Virus record (IMG/VR): IMGVR_UViG_3300031963_000166 | Span: 1 to 58,516 of that record | DNA length: 58,516 bases | Strand: one strand, 5' to 3' | Source: a virus | Lineage: Duplodnaviria > Caudoviricetes | In this document: one piece after another, positions 1-8,045 of the stretch | Layout: every line of letters starts with the position of its first letter | How positions within the stretch are numbered: the stretch's first letter is position 1 | Position numbers and translations under genes: made by a program | The notes under the pieces: model-generated | Told to the model about the DNA's origin: nothing | Databases searched by the model: none | Seen by the model: the letters and a program-made list of their open reading frames with translations, nothing else

Positions 1-670
1 GCGCTCTCCATGATCTGCGGCAGCCATGCTTTTTCCCCTCCAAAACCGAACATAATTTGGATTCCTAACGTAAATCGCATCAATTGTAACTGATTGATTC
101 TCAATAAAAGCATGACAGATTCTCCCGAGCGGAGACCATTTTATGGTTGGATTCCTGTTTGAGCATGATTTGCGTGCCTGTTGCCGAAGTGATGCCCGCC
201 CGAGCCTCCAAGAACCTGACGGCTTTATTGCAGGCCGCAGGATGGACGATGCATCTGCCTGCTTGGTTTATCCTGTGCGCAGATGAACGATCGGTTTATT
301 GTGCCCGCAGATGCCTGATCAGGGTTATTCCATTGGTCTGAGGTGTGCGGGCAATCTACATCAGCGCAAGGTGCAGGATCTCTCCTCGGCACGGGTGCAT
401 TCTATGCACGCACAGCATTACGACACTATGCACGCATAGCTTTATCTGCTATCCTCAATGAACTGACAGCTAGCTACTTATATCTACATGATTATCAGGG
501 CTTTATGTGTTTCCATTCACATCGGTACTGTCTCTCCCCGACAGCTATCTGGCTGCAAATCAATTGGTTGGCAATATATTGATCGTCAGCACGTTGGCCT
601 GACCCACCCCCTTTGCCAAGTCGACTTCGGAAGTTGCGGCGCCAGTGACGGTGTGGGGTAGACCCCCCGA

Positions 671-826
671 CCACAGACAGAAAGTAATTTTTCCAACCAG
701 GGACAGAAAGTAATTTTTCCAACCACAGACAGGAGGTGTTTTTTCGAGCCAGGGGCAGAAAGTAATTTTTCGAACCAGGAACAGAGCGGTGATTTTTGTA
801 CCGGTATTCACGGTGTATGTTTTTCG
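671..826. repeat. Degenerate 26-bp tandem repeat array (5 clear copies plus 1 decayed)
   Basis: Units start at 671, 697, 723, 749, 775 and 801; consensus approximately CCAsrGACAGAAAGTAATTTTTCsAA. Confidence 0.9.
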
Positions 827-880
827 GCGGTTGATTCGTTGACCCGTATTGGGTCGCTGGCCAAAAAAAATCAATTTTTT

Positions 881-912
881 TTTGCAAACAATGGCATTTT
901 GTGCTATGTTTG
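881..912 (+). promoter_or_regulatory. Bacteroidota sigma70-type promoter
   Basis: TTTG (881-884), 20-nt spacer, TATGTTTG (905-912), 14 nt before ATG 927. Confidence 0.75.
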
Positions 913-926
913 TCGAAAATAATTTT

Positions 927-1187
927 ATGAACGGTAAGCCAAAGAAAAAGACTACCGAGGGAGCTAACCAGGGCATGTCTTGTAGCAAGGATGGTTGTGG
1001 CGCGGTAAAAACTAACTCAAGCGTTGGTACCAACCGTCAGAACGCTGCTGGGGCAAAAGGTTTATCTTCCCGCCCTCAGTACGGCTCGAAGGTAGTTACC
1101 CCTCGGCAGGCTGAGAAGAGGGCTCAGAAAATGGCAAAAATTAGGTCTTCGGCTCCGTCTGGCAAGTCAAACAGGGATAAATTTTAA
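927..1187 (+). CDS. Small basic (K/R-rich) protein, possibly nucleic-acid binding
   Basis: ORF track 849..1187 trimmed to the ATG downstream of the promoter; strongly basic, low complexity. Confidence 0.7.
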   Translation: MNGKPKKKTTEGANQGMSCSKDGCGAVKTNSSVGTNRQNAAGAKGLSSRPQYGSKVVTPRQAEKRAQKMAKIRSSAPSGKSNRDKF

Positions 1188-1190
1188 AAC

Positions 1191-1460
1191 ATGAAGAAAG
1201 GAAACCCACAAAAGAAAGCGGAGAGGATCGACTCTCGGGCGTCAAAGAAAATGGACAAGGCCAAGTCTACATGGAATAAGGCAGAGGCCATGAGAAAGTC
1301 CCCCGTTGGATCCAACCGAACGTTTGCTCAGGAGGATTTCGGGAAAATGGCTCACCAGGTCAAGACCGAGAGGCTGTACGCAAAATCTGCAAGGCAGGCC
1401 GACAAGGCAAAAGAGTTGAAGACCCGGGCGGGGATCGTCAGAGCCGGGTCAAAGAAGTAA
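1191..1460 (+). CDS. Small basic K/A/R-rich protein
   Basis: 89 aa, 3 nt after the previous stop, followed by a terminator. Confidence 0.75.
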   Translation: MKKGNPQKKAERIDSRASKKMDKAKSTWNKAEAMRKSPVGSNRTFAQEDFGKMAHQVKTERLYAKSARQADKAKELKTRAGIVRAGSKK

Positions 1461-1503
1461 AGGCTTTTTTCATAGTTGAATTAAGGATAGGTTTTGGTAG
1501 CAA

Positions 1504-1536
1504 TGAAAAGCCCCTCAAACGTGAGGGGTTTTTTCA
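1504..1536. terminator. Bidirectional intrinsic terminator
   Basis: AAAAGCCCCTCA-AACG-TGAGGGGTTTTTT between convergent transcription units. Confidence 0.85.
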
Positions 1537-1609
1537 TCCATATCCACCCCAATCGGGCGTACTTGTGCAGGTTTGTCATCCATAGCCAATAGTTATCGGC
1601 AAATAAATT

Positions 1610-1810
1610 TTACTTCCTATCCCTCTCCGAAATGAACCTTGCATCGCCTTGTAAATACTTTACTGCATCCCAAAGGTCATCTAATACTATTGTCCCAAGT
1701 GGTAGCAAATTACCTTTACCATCTTTTACACCTGACAAGTAAATTGCAAGGTCACTTAGCGATTTTGTGTTAATCATTTTTCTTTCTTGAACTGGTTGTT
1801 TGTCTTCCAT
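1610..1810 (-). CDS. Hypothetical protein (cassette 1 ORF)
   Basis: 66-aa ORF filling the cassette body. Confidence 0.7.
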   Translation of the reverse strand: MEDKQPVQERKMINTKSLSDLAIYLSGVKDGKGNLLPLGTIVLDDLWDAVKYLQGDARFISERDRK

Positions 1811-1830
1811 AATCCGTAAAATTTATCAGC

Positions 1831-1962
1831 CTATAACATACGCTATACAAAAGTGGGGCTGTGTGCCAAATCTGTATAGTTGTGCATCTAATTTGCTTTT
1901 GTGCGGTAAGCAAGGGTTATGCATCTTATTCCCCACCTTCGTATAGCGTTTTGCCGTTAGCT
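1831..1962 (+). repeat. attC-like recombination site (132 bp)
   Basis: CTATAAC, 5 nt, CTATACAAAAGTGGGG ... CCCCACCTTCGTATAG, 9 nt, GTTAGCT; imperfect inverted repeat whose two A/C mismatches become G-T pairs on the bottom strand. Confidence 0.8.
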
Positions 1963-2352
1963 TCAATTGCCTGCCAACGCACGTTTATCCGTTAAAAATT
2001 TCATTAATAAATAAACACCATCATTTACGCCTGACCAATAGAAATCTTTATCTAAAGTCGGGTTTGCTTTGTGCCATTCATTTATAAAATCGTCAACAAG
2101 TTTTTTAGCTTCTTCATGGTTAGGTAACTTATTATGTTCTTCAATAATTGCTGCCGTTAATTCACGAGCTTTACCAAGTGAAATATTTTCATTGTGAACG
2201 TGTCCCCAAACATCTTGAATAATCCAACAAGCAGGTAAATGTTTGTGATAAATCGGATTTAAAACTTGTCCCGATTTTTGGCGTTCCATTAATTCTTCTA
2301 CGGTAATTTCTTTATCAAACCCGTATTTTTCGTGTAATTCTTCTACTGTCAT
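1963..2352 (-). CDS. Hypothetical protein (cassette 2 ORF)
   Basis: 129-aa AT-rich ORF; stop codon immediately beside the GTT site. Confidence 0.75.
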   Translation of the reverse strand: MTVEELHEKYGFDKEITVEELMERQKSGQVLNPIYHKHLPACWIIQDVWGHVHNENISLGKARELTAAIIEEHNKLPNHEEAKKLVDDFINEWHKANPTLDKDFYWSGVNDGVYLLMKFLTDKRALAGN

Positions 2353-2406
2353 TTGTTTATTTATTAATTGTTAATATTCATTCTAAAGCCAACGCAATGC
2401 AACTAA

Positions 2407-2470
2407 AGCTAACAGCACCTAAACCGCAACTCCGCTACGCTCCGCAGCGTTTAGCTGCAAACCGTTAGGT
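2407..2470 (+). repeat. attC-like recombination site (64 bp)
   Basis: AGCTAAC-AGCAC-CTAAACCG ... CGTTTAG-CTGCAAACC-GTTAGGT; 8-nt L'' with an extra C against a 7-nt L'; exact GTTRRRY. Confidence 0.85.
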
Positions 2471-2476
2471 GCAATG

Positions 2477-2863
2477 CTATCCGACTGACAACTCAAAATA
2501 ATAATGACCTCCAGTTCGCCACATGACATATCTCATTTGAAAGTGAGTAAGCCACATATTAGATGTGATGGCTGCAATAGTTTCTTCGTTGCCACTCCAT
2601 CCACCTGTATGTAATTCAAGTTTGTGTATGCCTTTGTATTTTCTGTGCAAAACAAATCCCCAATCTGACATATACCACCCATCAACAAGAACCTTTTTTA
2701 CAAAAGTGAGCAAAGGCAAACTTTCATCTGGCTTGTAAGTTTTAATAAATTGCAGCCATTCCTCCGTTGGATAACCTTCATCATCCAAAAGCACGGCAGG
2801 TAACACAGTGTTGCCGTCATTGCTGGCTTCTGTGCTATTTTGAAAGTTTTGTTCTGTATTCAT
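2477..2863 (-). CDS. Hypothetical protein (cassette 3 ORF); starts inside the attC-like site
   Basis: 128 aa with an LHTGGWSGNE motif; N-terminus encoded by the attC bottom strand. Confidence 0.8.
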   Translation of the reverse strand: MNTEQNFQNSTEASNDGNTVLPAVLLDDEGYPTEEWLQFIKTYKPDESLPLLTFVKKVLVDGWYMSDWGFVLHRKYKGIHKLELHTGGWSGNEETIAAITSNMWLTHFQMRYVMWRTGGHYYFELSVG

Positions 2864-2929
2864 CTTTCGTTTTTCAATTAAACATTTGTGCTAATAAACC
2901 GCCACTGCAGCAATGCCTTAACGTTAGTA
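2798..2929 (+). repeat. attC-like site, more degenerate or chimeric (132 bp)
   Basis: AGGTAAC-ACAGT-GTTGCCGTCATTGCTGG ... CCGCCACTGCAGCAAT-GCCTTAAC-GTTAGTA. Confidence 0.65.
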
Positions 2930-2947
2930 GCAAGCGGGCGGACACTC

Positions 2948-3169
2948 TTAATCATTTGCTTTACTCGCTTCGTTAATTCTTTGGTTAATCATCTGGTAGA
3001 TTTCATCTACAAGAGTATACTCTTTTTTGTTGAGTTCTCTGTACTTCCAGATTTGTCTAATATCCTCTCTGATATTATGCAAAGCAATGTAGTACTCCTG
3101 TCCATTAATAGCATAGCGGAAGTCATCTCCATCTTCAGGAAGATTAAACTCTAGTATTGCTTTACTCAT
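2948..3169 (-). CDS. Hypothetical phage protein (KAILEF.LPED family), paralog of 9948..10151
   Basis: Trimmed to ATG of MSKAILEFNLPED; shares its N-terminus with 9948..10151. Confidence 0.75.
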   Translation of the reverse strand: MSKAILEFNLPEDGDDFRYAINGQEYYIALHNIREDIRQIWKYRELNKKEYTLVDEIYQMINQRINEASKAND

Positions 3170-3290
3170 TTTTTTTTGAAATATAAAACTTGTCAAACAG
3201 ATATGCTATTATTCTAATAAGAATTTGTAGAATTAAAAATATACCAAACGGTAAACCGAACATAATAACTACTAATTCTTCTATTGTCAT
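3162..3290 (-). CDS. Small single-TM membrane peptide (42 aa, below ORF-track cutoff)
   Basis: Own translation: MTIEELVVIMFGLPFGIFLILQILIRIIAYLFDKFYISKKNE; ATGA overlap with the upstream stop; fills the gap exactly. Confidence 0.6.
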   Translation of the reverse strand: MTIEELVVIMFGLPFGIFLILQILIRIIAYLFDKFYISKKNE

Positions 3291-3559
3291 TTGTCACCTC
3301 CTTCATTTTTTGTAGTTAAAGTACATCTACTACCTGGTAAACTTGTTGTGTTAAGCATCTCAAGGTGATCCACAGAAGCAGTAAGTGTCACAGACTTGTG
3401 CTGGTCATCATGTGGAATACTCTTGTTGTCTCTAATCCTTTCAAGATTACCCAGTTGTTTTTTAAAGGCATCAAGTTCCGCACTTAGAATCATCTTTTCG
3501 TTTTGCAGGTTCTTGATATGCTCTTCACAATCTCTAATTGCAAATTCTATCTTGTTCAT
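3287..3559 (-). CDS. Hypothetical protein with N-terminal coiled coil
   Basis: 90 aa, ATGA-coupled to neighbours. Confidence 0.7.
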   Translation of the reverse strand: MNKIEFAIRDCEEHIKNLQNEKMILSAELDAFKKQLGNLERIRDNKSIPHDDQHKSVTLTASVDHLEMLNTTSLPGSRCTLTTKNEGGDK

Positions 3560-4173
3560 TGTTTAGATTGTTTAAGTGATTGAATAACTCTTTCTTTTGC
3601 TTTAGCTGATAAAACAGTACAATTCATAGCTTCCCTAACTTGTTCCTCTGTATATAGAGTTTCTTTGGCTTTGTTGTAACCTGCTTTGAATGCTTTTCTT
3701 ATTAAAGAAGAATTTGGATATAAATCATCATTTAATGGATAAAATTCCTCAGCCAACTTCTCTACATCTTCCACCATCTTCCCGACATCAGGAACATGGT
3801 TGACCATTTCGTTGACCTCACCAATATGGTTTATCATCTTGTTGCTGTCACCAAGTTGATCAATGACTTCATCCCATGCATCATAATTATTAACCGCATA
3901 TACCTCGCTGGTGTCAACAGGATGATGAATTAGTTTGGCATAGGTTAATCCATTTACGCCTACTTCACCATTTTCCCATTCTGTAACCATATCAAAATTT
4001 ATTTCTTTACCATCCCAATCAACTGAGTAATCACCATAGTCAATGCAGGTTTTCACATCAGCGGGATGCAATGGAAATGTTCCCCACCAAGACTTGTAAC
4101 CTATTGGTGTTTTTTCTGCTACTTTATGTTCCACCACCCACCCTTGGTCTGTTTTCACTAATGTTCCTTTCAT
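3556..4173 (-). CDS. Hypothetical mosaic protein with 10-aa repeats
   Basis: 205 aa; QLGDSNKMIN / HIGEVNEMVN / HVPDVGKMVE repeats. Confidence 0.75.
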   Translation of the reverse strand: MKGTLVKTDQGWVVEHKVAEKTPIGYKSWWGTFPLHPADVKTCIDYGDYSVDWDGKEINFDMVTEWENGEVGVNGLTYAKLIHHPVDTSEVYAVNNYDAWDEVIDQLGDSNKMINHIGEVNEMVNHVPDVGKMVEDVEKLAEEFYPLNDDLYPNSSLIRKAFKAGYNKAKETLYTEEQVREAMNCTVLSAKAKERVIQSLKQSKQ

Positions 4174-4409
4174 AGTTTTACCTCCTCATAAGTTGCTTCA
4201 AATATTTCCTTGTCAACTAACCACCTTTCCCCCTTGATCCCGACACACAAGTAGTGCTTGCCAAACTCGCCAATGTGATAAGGGTTTTCTAGTGTTTTGA
4301 TGTATGGCAGGTCACCACCAAACTCTTCGGTGTGAAGGATAAACCCATCCTCGTCCCCCTGTTCAAATAACTTAGCTTGTACTGTTGCTGTTTTTCTATA
4401 CGTTTTCAT
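4170..4409 (-). CDS. Conserved small phage protein (PGDYG-like beta domain)
   Basis: YRK..V.A ... IKTLE ... G.KGE.W ... IFEATYE pattern. Confidence 0.65.
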   Translation of the reverse strand: MKTYRKTATVQAKLFEQGDEDGFILHTEEFGGDLPYIKTLENPYHIGEFGKHYLCVGIKGERWLVDKEIFEATYEEVKL

Positions 4410-4720
4410 AGCTTTTGTATTTCTTGTTCTACTTGTTCTAAATACTCCAACATATCATACCCCGTCATGTGGTCTGGGTGTTCACCTTCAAAGGTAAATT
4501 TGCGTTCTCCAATGGCATCAAAGGCAAAATATTCAGGTTTGTGGAGTCCATCAAAGATGCCTTTCATGTGCTTTACTGCTATCAAAGCACATTGCTTGGC
4601 TTGATATAAACTCATTTCTGTGCAATCACAATATCTTTTATTTGGAAAATGCTCAATACCACAATGCTCTGTATTGTACATCTTATCTACTAATTCTTCT
4701 GCATATTGTTTTGGATTCAT
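4406..4720 (-). CDS. Hypothetical phage protein
   Basis: 104 aa, ATGA-coupled. Confidence 0.75.
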   Translation of the reverse strand: MNPKQYAEELVDKMYNTEHCGIEHFPNKRYCDCTEMSLYQAKQCALIAVKHMKGIFDGLHKPEYFAFDAIGERKFTFEGEHPDHMTGYDMLEYLEQVEQEIQKL

Positions 4721-4941
4721 TTGTCACCTCCGTATGTTTCGTTGTAAAAATCTTCAATTGTCATTTCACCAACTTCATATATCTGCCTAAGATAGTTGTT
4801 AGTAAATTGAATCATCTGCTCCTTGTCCATTTCTTTGGCTTCTGCTAAACACTTTCTAAAATGCTCTCTTTCTTTTGGGTCAGAGAACTCAAGGAATGGT
4901 AATAAATGTGCAAATAACCACTCTACTGCTGTTTGTTTCAT
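4717..4941 (-). CDS. Hypothetical phage protein (MKQTAVEWL type)
   Basis: 74 aa, ATGA-coupled. Confidence 0.75.
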   Translation of the reverse strand: MKQTAVEWLFAHLLPFLEFSDPKEREHFRKCLAEAKEMDKEQMIQFTNNYLRQIYEVGEMTIEDFYNETYGGDK

Positions 4942-4943
4942 AA

Positions 4944-5213
4944 TTATTTGTATTTTCTTATTAGTTCAAACGTCTTTTTTATATCCGTCCAATTGAGATG
5001 TATCTCCTCGCCACGCCTAACAGGATACCACGCTATGGTGTATCCGTGGTTAGCGTTGTAGAAGTCTTCCCTCTTTATAACATTGCCGTTAACCTTGTTA
5101 AGATATATCCAAGGTATGTTTCCTACAAGCTCAATGTTGACTCCTATCTTCTGAAGTCTCCTTACGAAAACACTCAGTTCATTTTCATCCTCCTGTTTAA
5201 GAAAATTTTTCAT
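4944..5213 (-). CDS. Hypothetical phage protein
   Basis: ORF track 4944..5339 trimmed to ATG of MKNFLKQ to avoid overlap with the cassette. Confidence 0.7.
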   Translation of the reverse strand: MKNFLKQEDENELSVFVRRLQKIGVNIELVGNIPWIYLNKVNGNVIKREDFYNANHGYTIAWYPVRRGEEIHLNWTDIKKTFELIRKYK

Positions 5214-5251
5214 TTTTCGGTGCAAGGGTACTGCATATATATATCTATCCG

Positions 5252-5660
5252 TTAGCGGCAACCTCACAGAAACTCCTCCACCTTGTGAGTGTCTAACCCA
5301 GTATAAGTGTGTATTAGTTTCCGTAAAGCCAAACCGCAACTTTCTGCCATTTTCATTCTATCCTCAACTGACATACCATCGTAATCTTGGTTGTCATACA
5401 TTTTGTCCATCAATGCAGTTTGGAAAATAATAGTAGCGTTCATGAAATCCCTGTTGGAATAATTAGGCTTGTTTTCATTCCCTTTTGCTTCTGCATTTTG
5501 CGTTAGCAAGTCGTTTGCTATTGCTTCAAGTGTTGTTTTATAACTTCTCATTGTGTATTAATTTGTGAAAAAGGGCAGCCGCCAACAAGTGCTATGCAAT
5601 ATGGCGGCTGACGTGCTTCGGTTAAACATTTTACTTAATTCAACTGTGGTGCACGGATTG
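5252..5660 (+). mobile_element. Isolated integron-like cassette with truncated attC (left arm only)
   Basis: G^TTAGCGGCAACCT at 5251 is reverse-complementary (10/14) to GGGCAGCCGCCAAC at 5573-5586, which is followed by AAGTG-CTATGCAATATGGCGG; no right arm found; right boundary approximate. Confidence 0.6.
5264..5551 (-). CDS. Hypothetical protein (cassette ORF)
   Basis: 95 aa, fills the cassette body. Confidence 0.75.
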   Translation of the reverse strand: MRSYKTTLEAIANDLLTQNAEAKGNENKPNYSNRDFMNATIIFQTALMDKMYDNQDYDGMSVEDRMKMAESCGLALRKLIHTYTGLDTHKVEEFL

Positions 5661-5672
5661 CTGTTTGCTGAC

Positions 5673-6701
5673 TCACCAAATGTCTTCCATTCCGGTTTCG
5701 ACGAAGTAGCTCCTTCCTGCGTTTTCGTTTTTACCCTGAGCTGGCAGGAATTCGGCGTAAGCGACGATCATCGGATCGTTTTCAAGCTGGGAGTTGTAGG
5801 TGATGACTTTTGTTTCTGGGTTATACGAGTCAACAGTTCCGGGAACCAACGTAATGGTGTTGTCCTGGGATGCGTTGAATCCGGCTGTTGCTGAAGCTCC
5901 GTAGGCGTTTGTGCCCGGTTGGTTGTACAGGTTCCACCTGAACGCAAACGATGGGCAAATTTTACCGTAAGAAGCAATTTTGTTTGGGGATCCCGTTGCC
6001 GGCTCGCCATTAATGTGGAAAATACCCTTGATCTGATTATCGGACACCTTTTCAATGTCCATGGCGATACTTGTAACGTGAGTTTGCGGATCTACGACAA
6101 CGCTATTGAACGTCATCCTTGTGTTGAACGCGATCTGCTCTTCCGTCATCCCGGTTATGGCCTTAAGCTGCTCAAGGCTCCATCTCACGAACTGGCGCTT
6201 GCTCGTCCATGTCCGAATGGTGCCTGATGAAGACCTTGTGATGGTCTTCTGAATTCGAAAAAACACACCTGGTCTTACAGGAGGGCTTGCCGGATCGCTC
6301 GGAAGCTTTGTCAGCGGATCCACATTGAGGCCAACGTCAGAAATGACGTCAAACGAATGCCCCGTCTCGTTGCTGTACAGCTCCACTTTTTGCCACGGAA
6401 ACCAGTGACCGCCCGTGCCGGTCTCCCTCGGCTTGGTGGTGACAATCATGTTCTCGTCAATCGAAACTATGTCGTGACCATATGCATGCAAGTAGTTGGA
6501 CAAAAGATTCAGCGTGTACGCCCCAAACAGCTCGGATGTGGTGGACACATACGTTTTTACCGATACGCTTTTGGGGGACACGGTAAAGTCGTGTGTCTCT
6601 TCGACAATCAGCGCCCGGTTGGTGCGGGTTTGGATTTGACCCTCGTACCTTGCGCATTCGTCGGGGAGCTGAAGAAGCTCTAACGCTTTTTGAATACTCA
6701 T
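5673..6701 (-). CDS. Hypothetical protein, 342 aa
   Basis: Long ORF with A-rich leader; no motif recognised. Confidence 0.8.
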   Translation of the reverse strand: MSIQKALELLQLPDECARYEGQIQTRTNRALIVEETHDFTVSPKSVSVKTYVSTTSELFGAYTLNLLSNYLHAYGHDIVSIDENMIVTTKPRETGTGGHWFPWQKVELYSNETGHSFDVISDVGLNVDPLTKLPSDPASPPVRPGVFFRIQKTITRSSSGTIRTWTSKRQFVRWSLEQLKAITGMTEEQIAFNTRMTFNSVVVDPQTHVTSIAMDIEKVSDNQIKGIFHINGEPATGSPNKIASYGKICPSFAFRWNLYNQPGTNAYGASATAGFNASQDNTITLVPGTVDSYNPETKVITYNSQLENDPMIVAYAEFLPAQGKNENAGRSYFVETGMEDIW

Positions 6702-6720
6702 TTTATTTTGTTTTTATGGA

Positions 6721-6912
6721 TTAACGCTGTTTTTTCGACTCTACGATATCCCACCTGTAGGAATACCAGTCTCTGTTCATGCCAAGCATTTTATCAAGCT
6801 TCCAGCAGTCGTTGAGACACTTGCTTTTCGCCTGCTCTGGGTTTTTCGCTCTTGTTTTCGCGTAGTGCACCCTATTGGCGCCGTCCCACACGGTTATTTC
6901 GTAATTAATCAT
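6721..6912 (-). CDS. Hypothetical protein
   Basis: 63 aa, ATGA-coupled to the upstream gene. Confidence 0.65.
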   Translation of the reverse strand: MINYEITVWDGANRVHYAKTRAKNPEQAKSKCLNDCWKLDKMLGMNRDWYSYRWDIVESKKQR

Positions 6913-7304
6913 TCTTCGCCCTCCCCTGATATCAATACGTCCGTACCGTCAGGAATAGGCGTTCCATTCGCTTCGGCCTCTGCGATCGCTTTTTTGACGT
7001 TTCGAATCGCCATTGTTATGGCGTACCAAAACTCCAGCGGCAGCCCCGACAGCTCCGCAAGCGTCTCGTCCATTGTGGCCAAGGCTCTTACATACTCGTC
7101 CCCGCCGTTTACCTGGCCAAGAGTGGTGTATAGGTGTTTGAACTTAGTTTCGAGCTTCGAAACCAGATTGTTTGATGACATTTTCAGGTCGTGAGTAAAA
7201 ATGCCCTTGGAAACGCCCTCATCATGGCAGTGGGTGTATATTTGCTGTGCAGCAAGACCTGTTACGACAACCCGATAGGATCTGATAGCTTGTTCTTTTG
7301 TCAT
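6909..7304 (-). CDS. Hypothetical protein
   Basis: Trimmed to ATG of MTKEQ; TAAATTTG box on the minus strand at 7352-7359. Confidence 0.7.
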   Translation of the reverse strand: MTKEQAIRSYRVVVTGLAAQQIYTHCHDEGVSKGIFTHDLKMSSNNLVSKLETKFKHLYTTLGQVNGGDEYVRALATMDETLAELSGLPLEFWYAITMAIRNVKKAIAEAEANGTPIPDGTDVLISGEGEE

Positions 7305-7377
7305 TTGTTTTGAAATATGTTGCAATCATACAACATAGTGATGCTTTTTTGCAAATTTATATGCAAAATTTAACAAT

Positions 7378-7635
7378 TTAATTCCTCAGAATCATAATGC
7401 TCTCTCTTGTCCGCCTGTCTATCTCTCTTTCCACCAGTGTTTGTGGTTTTCCAACGACAAATTGCGCGCCACCGGATCCTATTACGCAGAGATTTTCAAA
7501 GTCGTGATACGGACCTATGAAGTCCACAGAATAAAATACAAAGTCCTCAGTGTGAAATACTTCCGGTGTGCCGTACCCCTGCTCGTATTTATCTATTTCT
7601 TCGTCATTAACGACCGGGAGGCGGAGCTTAAGCAT
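7378..7635 (-). CDS. Hypothetical protein
   Basis: 85 aa; TAAATTTG box on the minus strand at 7655-7662. Confidence 0.7.
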   Translation of the reverse strand: MLKLRLPVVNDEEIDKYEQGYGTPEVFHTEDFVFYSVDFIGPYHDFENLCVIGSGGAQFVVGKPQTLVEREIDRRTRESIMILRN

Positions 7636-7701
7636 TGTGTGGTATTTTGTAAAGCAAATTTAATGAAAAGCATCCGCAAGGGAGCTGTTTTGGTAGAAAA
7701 A

Positions 7702-7728
7702 TAAAGCCCGCGCTGGCGGCGGGCTTTA
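7702..7728 (-). terminator. Intrinsic terminator hairpin
   Basis: TAAAGCCCGC-GCTGGCG-GCGGGCTTTA with a T-run on the minus strand, right after stop 7731. Confidence 0.75.
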
Positions 7729-7730
7729 AA

Positions 7731-8045
7731 TTACGCGTTAACAACCTCTGCCTGACCGTTCAGGGCAATTGGCGGAGGAATTACGTTAATCTCAAATCGG
7801 TATGCGGTTGCGTTGCTTTTTGAGTTGATCAATCTTACAACGCTTTTGCCTACATTTACGGCTTTCACGGACAGTTCCTGGCCGTTTTCAGTGACATCAA
7901 GGCACTTGTCGTTGGTGAGGCTCCACTCCAAATCTGGGGCAAATCCCTCGCTTACAACAACATCAAACGCTTGACCCTGAATGGCGTCTACAGACCCATT
8001 AAAGTCTCGTATGATGTTTCCTGAGATTAGAAAGTCAAGTTTCAT
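7731..8045 (-). CDS. Ig-like (Big_2-type) domain protein
   Basis: LEWSLTNDKCLDV ... SVKAVNVGKSVVRL pattern. Confidence 0.6.
   Translation of the reverse strand: MKLDFLISGNIIRDFNGSVDAIQGQAFDVVVSEGFAPDLEWSLTNDKCLDVTENGQELSVKAVNVGKSVVRLINSKSNATAYRFEINVIPPPIALNGQAEVVNA

Follow-up and report, generated by a model that had tools for sequence, protein, structure and literature searches.

A likely orphan array of integron-like, hairpin-first gene cassettes in a Bacteroidota phage

Integrons, and the orphan arrays without an enzyme known as CALINs (attC clusters that have no integron integrase), consist of units with a single open reading frame (ORF) that are bounded by AAC/GTT cores and carry an imperfect hairpin; a unit's two half-boxes are complementary, as if joined in a circle, and a docking junction lies beside a tyrosine recombinase gene (PMC9892861, PMC5027507, PMC4889954). 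In the account of Nivina et al. (2016, PMC5027507), the bottom strand, which is the one recombined, carries the AAC crossover box 5′, then the hairpin and then the GTT box, with the gene read from the other strand; the R-box consensus is RYYYAAC/GTTRRRY, and the introduction of that paper gives a central spacer of 5–6 unpaired nt on each arm. Cassettes are transcribed away from intI (Cury et al. 2016, PMC4889954), the I2 region of IntI has been tied to single-strand recombination (Escudero 2020), and attC clusters in phages have already been published (Qi et al. 2023, PMC9892861). In T4-type phages, promoter early stem-loops (PeSLs) are promoter-plus-terminator units exchanged by homologous recombination; a repeated stem-loop stands before each small accessory ORF in hyperplastic regions, and mini-circles have been proposed (PMC2839356). 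Here we analyse a window of 58,516 nt, a linear 58.5-kb IMG/VR virus record (IMGVR_UViG_3300031963_000166) that CheckV rates 89% complete, in which a first-pass annotation had described four attC cassettes with inverted ORFs. We consider it likely, as a joint reading, that window positions 1593–5645 are a variable accessory block of a Bacteroidota phage and that the left part, 1593–2472, is an orphan array of an integron-like cassette system in which the hairpin precedes the gene.

The window holds two complete units, both within 1593–2472, each with a minus-strand ORF, an upstream hairpin and a matched 9-nt box after the stop. Their features are listed here, 'sense' denoting the ORF-sense strand and an arrow the cut:

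1575–1593, minus strand: backbone side of the array junction, an attI-like remnant; in sense the last cassette ends ...GATAA↓C, then TATTGGCTATGG
1593–1601, plus strand: terminal box of cassette 1, GTTATCGGC (sense GCCGATAAC); crossover predicted between G1593 and T1594
1610–1810, minus strand: ORF of cassette 1, 66 aa, no family (ORF list and family searches)
1829–1837, plus strand: own box of cassette 1 (sense GTTATAGGC), the invariant GTT side of the site B family
1838–1955, minus strand: hairpin site B; spacer 1838–1840, arms 1841–1858 and 1931–1948, spacer 1949–1955
1956–1964, plus strand: terminal box of cassette 2, GTTAGCTTC, overlapping the stop of ORF2; crossover predicted between G1956 and T1957
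1963–2352, minus strand: ORF of cassette 2, 129 aa, no family (ORF list and family searches)
2405–2413, plus strand: own box of cassette 2 (sense GTTAGCTTT), pairing with 1956–1964
2414–2463, minus strand: hairpin site C; spacer 2414, arms 2415–2427 and 2447–2458, spacer 2459–2463
2464–2472, plus strand: box GTTAGGTGC after the stop of ORF3 (contig divergence)

Adjacency to a hairpin is uninformative because every ORF inside an array has a hairpin on both sides, and we rejected it as a test of polarity. Unit boundaries were instead read from copies in other contexts. Aligned with viral contigs L012 and L069, the window shares with both a block made of the hairpin (1838–1955), the ORF (1610–1810) and the box, which on the sense strand starts at TAAC and ends in the box ...ATAAC, the common homology stopping exactly at 1593–1601. 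Beyond TAAC on both sides the three sequences are unrelated, and no hairpin follows the ORF in L012 or L069. The same ORF stands behind this hairpin in a contig of metagenome run X20 as well, the context being different each time; this contig carries window 1592–1949 between unrelated flanks, diverging at 1592 and departing from the window again at 1949–1956. Contigs of runs X16 and X19 end at 1592, and contigs of all three runs match the window rightwards from 2451 and differ to the left (the metagenome comparison used contigs, not reads, and rare forms are invisible to it). An all-against-all comparison of loci found 21 segments in common whose two ends are both internal; hairpin–ORF–box units that end no more than 3 nt from a box account for at least 14 of them. 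For the ORF of cassette 2 (1963–2352) no close relative was found in viral contigs.

The boxes at the two ends of a unit pair across its ORF. Box 1593–1601 is complementary at 8 of 9 positions to the cassette's own box at 1829–1837, with a 9/9 version in L012 and L069, and box 1956–1964 likewise matches 2405–2413 at 8/9. A first census of box pairs, using 9-mers with one mismatch allowed, was abandoned, its 3,951 pairs being swamped by chance. A 19-mer of site B recurs exactly in 64 viral contigs, and for the census of its family we ascertained members by a pattern of the two stem arms alone, which matched 57 viral stretches and gave 6 true matches in Bacteroidota genome contigs (Olivibacter, Pedobacter, Chryseobacterium, Chitinophagales and others); matches in L070 and L072 were dropped as chance. 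This left 56 unique contexts for flank conservation and 58 for the box census. An ATG-initiated sense ORF of at least 25 codons lies downstream of the hairpin in 58/58 contexts, its ATG 6–45 nt past the GTT box and mostly 28–33 nt. Among the 56 ORFs complete in the available sequence, 48 are followed by a box (searched within −12 to +60 nt of the stop) that is the perfect 9/9 complement of their own hairpin's box, and 4 more by an 8/9 match, whereas the adjacent box on the hairpin's other, upstream side reaches 4–8/9 and never 9 (n = 56). In L078 and L079 variant boxes covary, as compensatory variants. On the ORF side, the stem is followed by the same 7 nt (TATGTTA) in 56/56 contexts, the full 11-nt TATGTTATAGG is present in 52/56 and conservation extends to +23; on the opposite flank, conservation starts at the T of TAAC and runs inward only, with positions −11 to −15 at ≤0.26 bits.

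Because copies of ORF1 keep the upstream hairpin only, and because the boxes pair across the ORF, we assign each hairpin to the ORF downstream of it. We conclude from these comparisons that hairpin, ORF and box appear to move as one unit bounded by TAAC. The opposite assignment, that the first-pass polarity is wrong and the hairpins go with the ORFs that lie upstream on the minus strand, in the canonical ORF-then-attC order, would suit the distance of 7–17 nt between a stop and the following AAC box, which canonical cassettes share, and an extra base at L001 9796–9935 that sits in the 5′ arm of the sense strand, the other arm from that of site C. It is extremely unlikely, given that the ORF1 copies in L012 and L069 share the upstream hairpin and have none downstream, that the box on the ORF-upstream side of the hairpin is variable and the ORF-side box invariant, and that arrays end in a box with no hairpin before the backbone or recombinase.

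The ORF-sense strand carries the AAC box 5′, the hairpin and the GTT box, and for this reason the plus strand is the integron 'top' strand and the ORFs are inverted. The first-pass annotation had made this point for four ORFs (1610–1810, 1963–2352, 2477–2863 and 5264–5551), all on the minus strand in the ORF list as well; counted from the G of GTT (1593, 1956, 2464 and 5251), their stops begin 17, 7, 13 and 13 nt further on. On unit boundaries and boxes, its orientation holds for the two testable units and for 58/58 members of the site B family, in all of which the ORF is on the strand opposite to that of canonical integron cassettes. Its count of four cassettes held in part: those at 1610 and 1963 have a hairpin and matched boxes, and those at 2477 and 5264 lack verifiable sites. 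We place the predicted crossover on the plus strand at G↓TT, with the ORFs on the integron 'bottom' strand.

Two independent structural markers, read across hairpins of diverse sequence, carry the same polarity. The annotation had put a 5-nt spacer on the left, which proved mistaken: site C has 5 nt on the right (2459–2463) and 1 nt on the left (2414), and at site B the right spacer is 7 nt and the left 3 nt. Of 83 junctions with a callable coding strand, 73 have the longer spacer on the TAAC side when oriented ORF-sense (49/56 outside family B, 24/27 inside), and the 5-nt/1-nt architecture of site C recurs in L001, L037, L014 and many surveyed junctions. We found 148 unique hairpin elements, of which 123 fold with a stem at least 4 bp longer on one strand, via G–T pairs; the better-folding strand has the long spacer 5′ in 109/123. 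Site B itself folds better on the minus strand (−21.3 kcal/mol, z −2.65, 5/200 shuffles) than on the plus strand (−16.7 kcal/mol, z −1.43), because two A/C mismatches become G–T pairs there, as the annotation had noted. It had also rightly seen an extra base in the left arm of site C (2415–2427, 13 nt, versus 2447–2458, 12 nt); the folding of this site alone is not significant (z about −0.9). The confinement of G–T (G–U) pairs to the ORF-sense strand in most elements would also be expected if the hairpins were purely RNA structures, serving processing or stability between cistrons, with DNA mobility incidental. That account leaves the sharp TAAC boundaries, the box complementarity across the ORF and the recombinase linkage described below unexplained, and we regard it as very unlikely as the whole explanation; an RNA role could coexist with a DNA role.

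Mini-hairpin sites of about 45 nt were seen on the minus strand of L007 (oriented 401–445 and 1393–1440) and in L017, L020, L028, L057, L062 and L067; an 11-nt loop, TCGTTTTAATG, is kept in most copies, and the stems vary between copies yet stay complementary. A motif similar to this loop, CGTTTTAAT, lies behind the GTT box of family B. In L014 (4866–5300, plus strand) an ORF sits inside the hairpin loop, with a 24-nt arm before it and the complement, with G–T changes, after it; a nearly empty box-to-box segment with only a small hairpin follows.

Compared with attC sites, the hairpins show both agreement and departure. In attC sites, AAC/GTT triplets are conserved in paired R boxes and exchange falls between A and C. 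Every junction here has (T)AAC and GTT(A), and shared units end at TAAC on both sides, with a predicted cut within TAAC. The boxes follow the consensus loosely, CTATAAC/GTTATAG at site B being two to three positions off and AGCTAAC/GTTAGCT at site C one off. With their boxes, sites B (1829–1964, 136 nt) and C (2405–2472, 68 nt) fall in the attC length range of 57–141 bp with variable terminal structure. However, attC sites have two or three extrahelical bases near L″ on the recombined strand, whereas B-family stems are 19–22 bp with no bulges, and site C has one extra base. The spacers, 7/3 nt at site B, 5/1 nt at site C and 6–7/3 or 5/1 nt overall, are unlike those of attC. An integron cassette has a promoterless ORF, expressed from Pc, that lies upstream of its attC on the top strand; here 58/58 ORFs lie downstream of their own hairpin, on the strand with the AAC box 5′. 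On these features, sites B and C are best described as something other than canonical attC sites.

The enzyme linked to such arrays in related phages differs from IntI as well. A PF00589 match was found in 8/44 hairpin-bearing contigs. In L007, L014, L037, L022 and L009, where a recombinase occurs near the hairpin, its gene is found downstream of the array, on the strand of the ORFs; in L007, L014, L037 and the small bacterial contig L082 it is co-oriented and starts 50–60 nt after the last TAAC. Array-linked proteins are 265–297 aa long with PF00589 and PF13495 matches, and fall below the cut-off on the XerA/integron-integrase model; their TIGR02249 scores are 86–185 bits against a cut-off of 265, the match falling in two stretches. 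The recombinase aligns full length to archaeal XerA structures, and against VchIntIA (2a3v) its residues 14–175 and 198–272 align to 13–178 and 244–318, leaving about 43 IntI residues without a counterpart. These alignments identify the linked enzyme as a putative short Xer-like tyrosine recombinase without the IntI insertion (I2).

Starting from the enzyme gave the same linkage. We took a four-sequence profile and the best 80 of 198 relatives in viral contigs, which provided 65 loci with at least 1 kb upstream. Forward hairpin junctions occur upstream of the recombinase in 54/65 loci; the 208 kb of upstream sequence contain 204 forward and 4 reverse junctions in all, the 261 kb of downstream sequence 1 forward and 0 reverse. 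In 17/35 loci, TAAC followed by TA..ATAT is the nearest TAAC and lies 51–52 nt before the ATG, and in most remaining loci a TAAC–TA..ATAT junction near 51–52 nt is visible by eye. The window has a remnant of this attI-like junction (1575–1593), resembling those 51–52 nt upstream of the recombinase gene in relatives, and no enzyme; its array would end at the remnant, beside the terminator of convergent genes. Among GenBank sequences, the integrases annotated in Polaribacter phages Freya and Leef and in Cellulophaga phage Ingeline are relatives at 34–37% identity. Freya_10 (L202) has ten small co-oriented ORFs before the integrase. Freya_1 and Freya_10, two isolates of a single cultured phage species, share 99.7% identity beginning about 55 nt ahead of the integrase ATG and are unrelated up to that point, the change (L202 region 4080–4147) falling exactly at an AAC. 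In ten Freya records the integrase stands 71 to 4168 nt from the record start.

In sampled Bacteroidota genomes, 113/301 had a recombinase profile match at E ≤1e-50 (G045–G348). Forward junctions upstream of the homologue were present in 0/30 of the best bacterial loci (28 with 1500 nt examined), one of which (L180) has an attI-like junction. Since none of these best bacterial loci has them (0/30, against 54/65 viral loci), the arrays appear to be mainly a feature of viral DNA, which bears out the first-pass suggestion of a phage-associated cassette class. Most bacterial relatives are longer forms (open frames of 350–600 aa) without arrays upstream. In L082 (1–1220 of a 3.5-kb contig from a Chitinophagales metagenome-assembled genome) the unit before the short recombinase is a long ORF that looks by eye like a DNA cytosine methyltransferase.

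Could these nonetheless be ordinary integron attC sites recombined by a host IntI, forming a phage CALIN in which recombination of the top strand, or secondary events, turned the ORFs round? The locus does have AAC/GTT cores, box pairs, cassette logic and hairpins of 68–128 nt, and Qi et al. (2023, PMC9892861) report phage CALINs, including attC sites 'in divergent directions' in a Polaribacter phage, with IntI1 recombining 5/6 phage sites. Yet the stems of family B are uninterrupted, the spacers contrast with the 5–6 nt on each arm of attC (PMC5027507), orientation is uniform (58/58) rather than sporadic, and the linked recombinase has no IntI insertion. Moreover, matches over the TIGR02249 integron-integrase cut-off came from 0/5 hairpin-bearing Bacteroidota genomes, in a search that also gave 0/14 in control genomes and had no positive control. 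Beyond these points, the phage hairpin precedes its ORF, the ORFs run toward the recombinase and not away from it, the central spacers are asymmetric, there is no Pc logic, and the recombinase is about 266 aa. We therefore consider recombination by a host IntI unlikely. The first-pass formulation, of ordinary bacterial attC cassettes that are inverted and hence miss the host Pc, is not supported as phrased; the data fit a distinct hairpin-first system with an Xer-like recombinase and an attI-like junction. The 'reverse integrons' (inverted-integrase integrons) of Treponema share with this system co-directional integrase and cassette ORFs; they have a true IntI, the order ORF then attC, and intI upstream of the array, whereas the phages have the site ahead of the ORF and the recombinase gene downstream of the whole array.

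PeSLs are the other described system that the locus resembles, and the hairpins might be PeSL-like promoter/terminator regulatory cassettes whose genes are shuffled by homologous recombination between repeats. A hairpin just upstream of each small ORF in a hyperplastic phage region would fit, as would an A+T-rich conserved leader at a fixed 28–33 nt from the ATG, and PeSL mini-circles have been documented (PMC2839356). Against this, the boundaries are at TAAC, outside the repeat; every cassette has its own 9-nt box complement, compensatory variants included; the unique hairpin elements that are listed differ in stem sequence and share one architecture; and the geometry of array and linked tyrosine recombinase is fixed. 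No T-run follows the hairpins, and no sigma-70-like or terminator-like site was found in 1811–1962 or 2353–2476 by a scan that did not include Bacteroidota promoter types. A PeSL-like origin thus seems improbable.

Comparison with a close relative delimits the block in which the array lies. Viral contig L001 is 98% identical to the window over 9000–5646 and 1602–1269, and between these flanks it has 2.7 kb of other small ORFs; because the two share both flanks and differ in between, we regard the block as a swap region. In the window it is an A+T-rich run of small minus-strand ORFs between two conserved flanks (34–37% G+C versus 45–49%). None of its 10 ORFs reaches the Pfam cut-off, and 2/10 match PHROGs of unknown function. 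Elsewhere the window encodes terminase, portal and primase/helicase genes. An Rfam scan of the window found no relevant family at gathering or E-value thresholds, no tRNA was found, and blastn of window 1–8000 and of site B against GenBank phages returned no match. The motif CGTTAG occurs 18 times in the whole window against 18.5 expected, and CCGTTAGS likewise is not above chance; for this reason we dropped motif enrichment as an argument, and significance rests on comparison. CGTTAG motifs at the right end of the window (55.6–58.5 kb) were rejected as sites, as they lie inside ordinary genes.

Our preferred reading of the array is as follows. A unit on the ORF-sense strand consists of C, a 5–7-nt spacer, the imperfect hairpin, a 1–3-nt spacer, the GTTA box, a leader of about 20 nt, the ORF and a complementary box ending in TAA. 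Excision of a unit would yield a circle whose two boxes pair, lengthening the hairpin, and the sense single-stranded DNA would fold as the substrate. Strand exchange with an attI-like junction is predicted at TAA↓C of the sense strand, corresponding to G↓TT of the plus strand. The probable catalyst is the short Xer-like tyrosine recombinase whose gene, in related phages, lies about 52 nt downstream of TAAC–TA..ATAT. Each ORF may be transcribed from the conserved A+T-rich leader or a cassette-borne promoter, or by read-through; the first-pass annotation had proposed that the phage's minus-strand transcription would read the cassettes. By analogy, a hairpin without extrahelical bases could be the substrate of an Xer-type enzyme that lacks the IntI helix: XerC and XerD are described as the only other tyrosine recombinases that use both single- and double-stranded substrates (Nivina 2016, PMC5027507). 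Known Xer cases differ in that whole phage genomes are integrated at dif, not cassette arrays. Because the phage record has no recombinase gene, the window array would be either serviced in trans or a fossil. A bolder version, to which we give even chances, is a self-contained 'mirror integron' of Bacteroidota phages, in which an Xer-like enzyme without I2 shuffles single-gene cassettes via folded hairpins without extrahelical bases, the hairpin before the gene probably supplies the promoter, and orphan arrays are serviced in trans during co-infection.

Several observations weigh against the hairpin-first reading. No PF00589 match, and so no tyrosine recombinase, was detected in the window (a record that is 89% complete), and a recombinase was present in just 1/15 near-complete related viral records. 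The recombinase lacks the I2 region of IntI, which bears against the predicted folded single-strand substrate, and the G–T pairs of the sense strand suit RNA structure equally well. The boundary evidence is all comparative: no circular or excised form of a unit was observed, and the metagenome contigs compared contained no joint that deletes a unit from TAAC to TAAC. The far boundary of the block with L001, at 5646, does not coincide with an AAC. Just two units in the window are complete, with ORF3, ORF 5264–5551 and the block 2948–5214 outside the unit model. Finally, 4/56 family B cassettes have no matched box (≤5/9), the spacer marker is reversed in 6/83 junctions and equal in 4/83, and the fold marker is reversed in 13 of the 123 elements and equal in 1; these exceptions may partly be crude strand calls.

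If the proposed mechanism is right, small accessory genes are captured by a dedicated system in phages that infect a major bacterial phylum. Such phage genes often include anti-defence and host-takeover functions; no ORF of this array belongs to a known family. Cassette exchange in the style of integrons would then be independent of the IntI-specific helix and of extrahelical bases, which bears on the origin of integrons from Xer-like recombinases: single-strand hairpin cassette recombination would have evolved, or would persist, without what is regarded as the defining feature of integron integrases. Such arrays would be overlooked, or given the wrong orientation, by annotation tools built on the order ORF-then-attC. 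In the literature searched, supplements being outside its scope, we found no description of a hairpin-first cassette system with an Xer-like enzyme. The question is directly testable, as Polaribacter phages Freya and Leef and Cellulophaga phage Ingeline are relatives available in culture.

To the right of the two complete units, the block contains the following features:

2477–2863, minus strand: ORF3, 128 aa; cassette status half supported (box after the stop, homologue in L034)
2914–2931, plus strand: hairpin-less junction of AAC and GTT, TGCCTTAAC then directly GTTAGTAGC; no structure (z +1.1)
2948–5214, minus strand: block of packed or overlapping small ORFs without hairpin sites (ORF list); cassettes unverified
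5251–5259, plus strand: box GTTAGCGGC after the stop of ORF 5264–5551; no matched partner found
5264–5551, minus strand: ORF, 95 aa, an unverified candidate cassette, the fourth of the first-pass annotation (ORF list and family searches)
5567–5619, minus strand: G+C hairpin then T-run downstream of gene 5673–6701, terminator-like (folding)
5646: far end of the variable block, where L001 identity resumes; not at AAC/GTT

ORF3 has a homologue in L034 (89% DNA identity), also with a decayed upstream element; it has no matched box upstream in the window, and no site was recognisable upstream of it in the window or in the L034 copy. Neither the junction at 2914–2931 (z +1.1) nor that at 5251 (z −0.9) shows a significant hairpin or a matched box. 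The hairpin at 5567–5619 was rejected as an attC site, the T-run after it on the minus strand being terminator-like; the terminator scan missed it, probably owing to its long loop. On the minus strand, a TAAC at 5250–5253 (region 5215–5253) is followed by GGATAGATATATATATG and resembles the attI-like TAAC–TA..ATAT, the next gene there being a 90-aa ORF and not a recombinase. Within 3300–4940, many stretches are skipped or replaced in contigs from four metagenome runs, with joints (such as 3828 to 4724 and 3844 to 4726) that do not fall at AAC/GTT; these joints are ordinary mosaicism of a multi-ORF block. Just outside the end of the array is a 28-nt direct repeat (1519–1546 and 1561–1588, 75% identical, 42 nt apart), whose second copy abuts the junction at 1593. 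Near the left end of the record, the non-coding stretch 655–790 has three to four direct repeats of about 26 nt (…CAGAAAGTAATTTTTC.AACCA…), which look iteron-like and may mark an origin.

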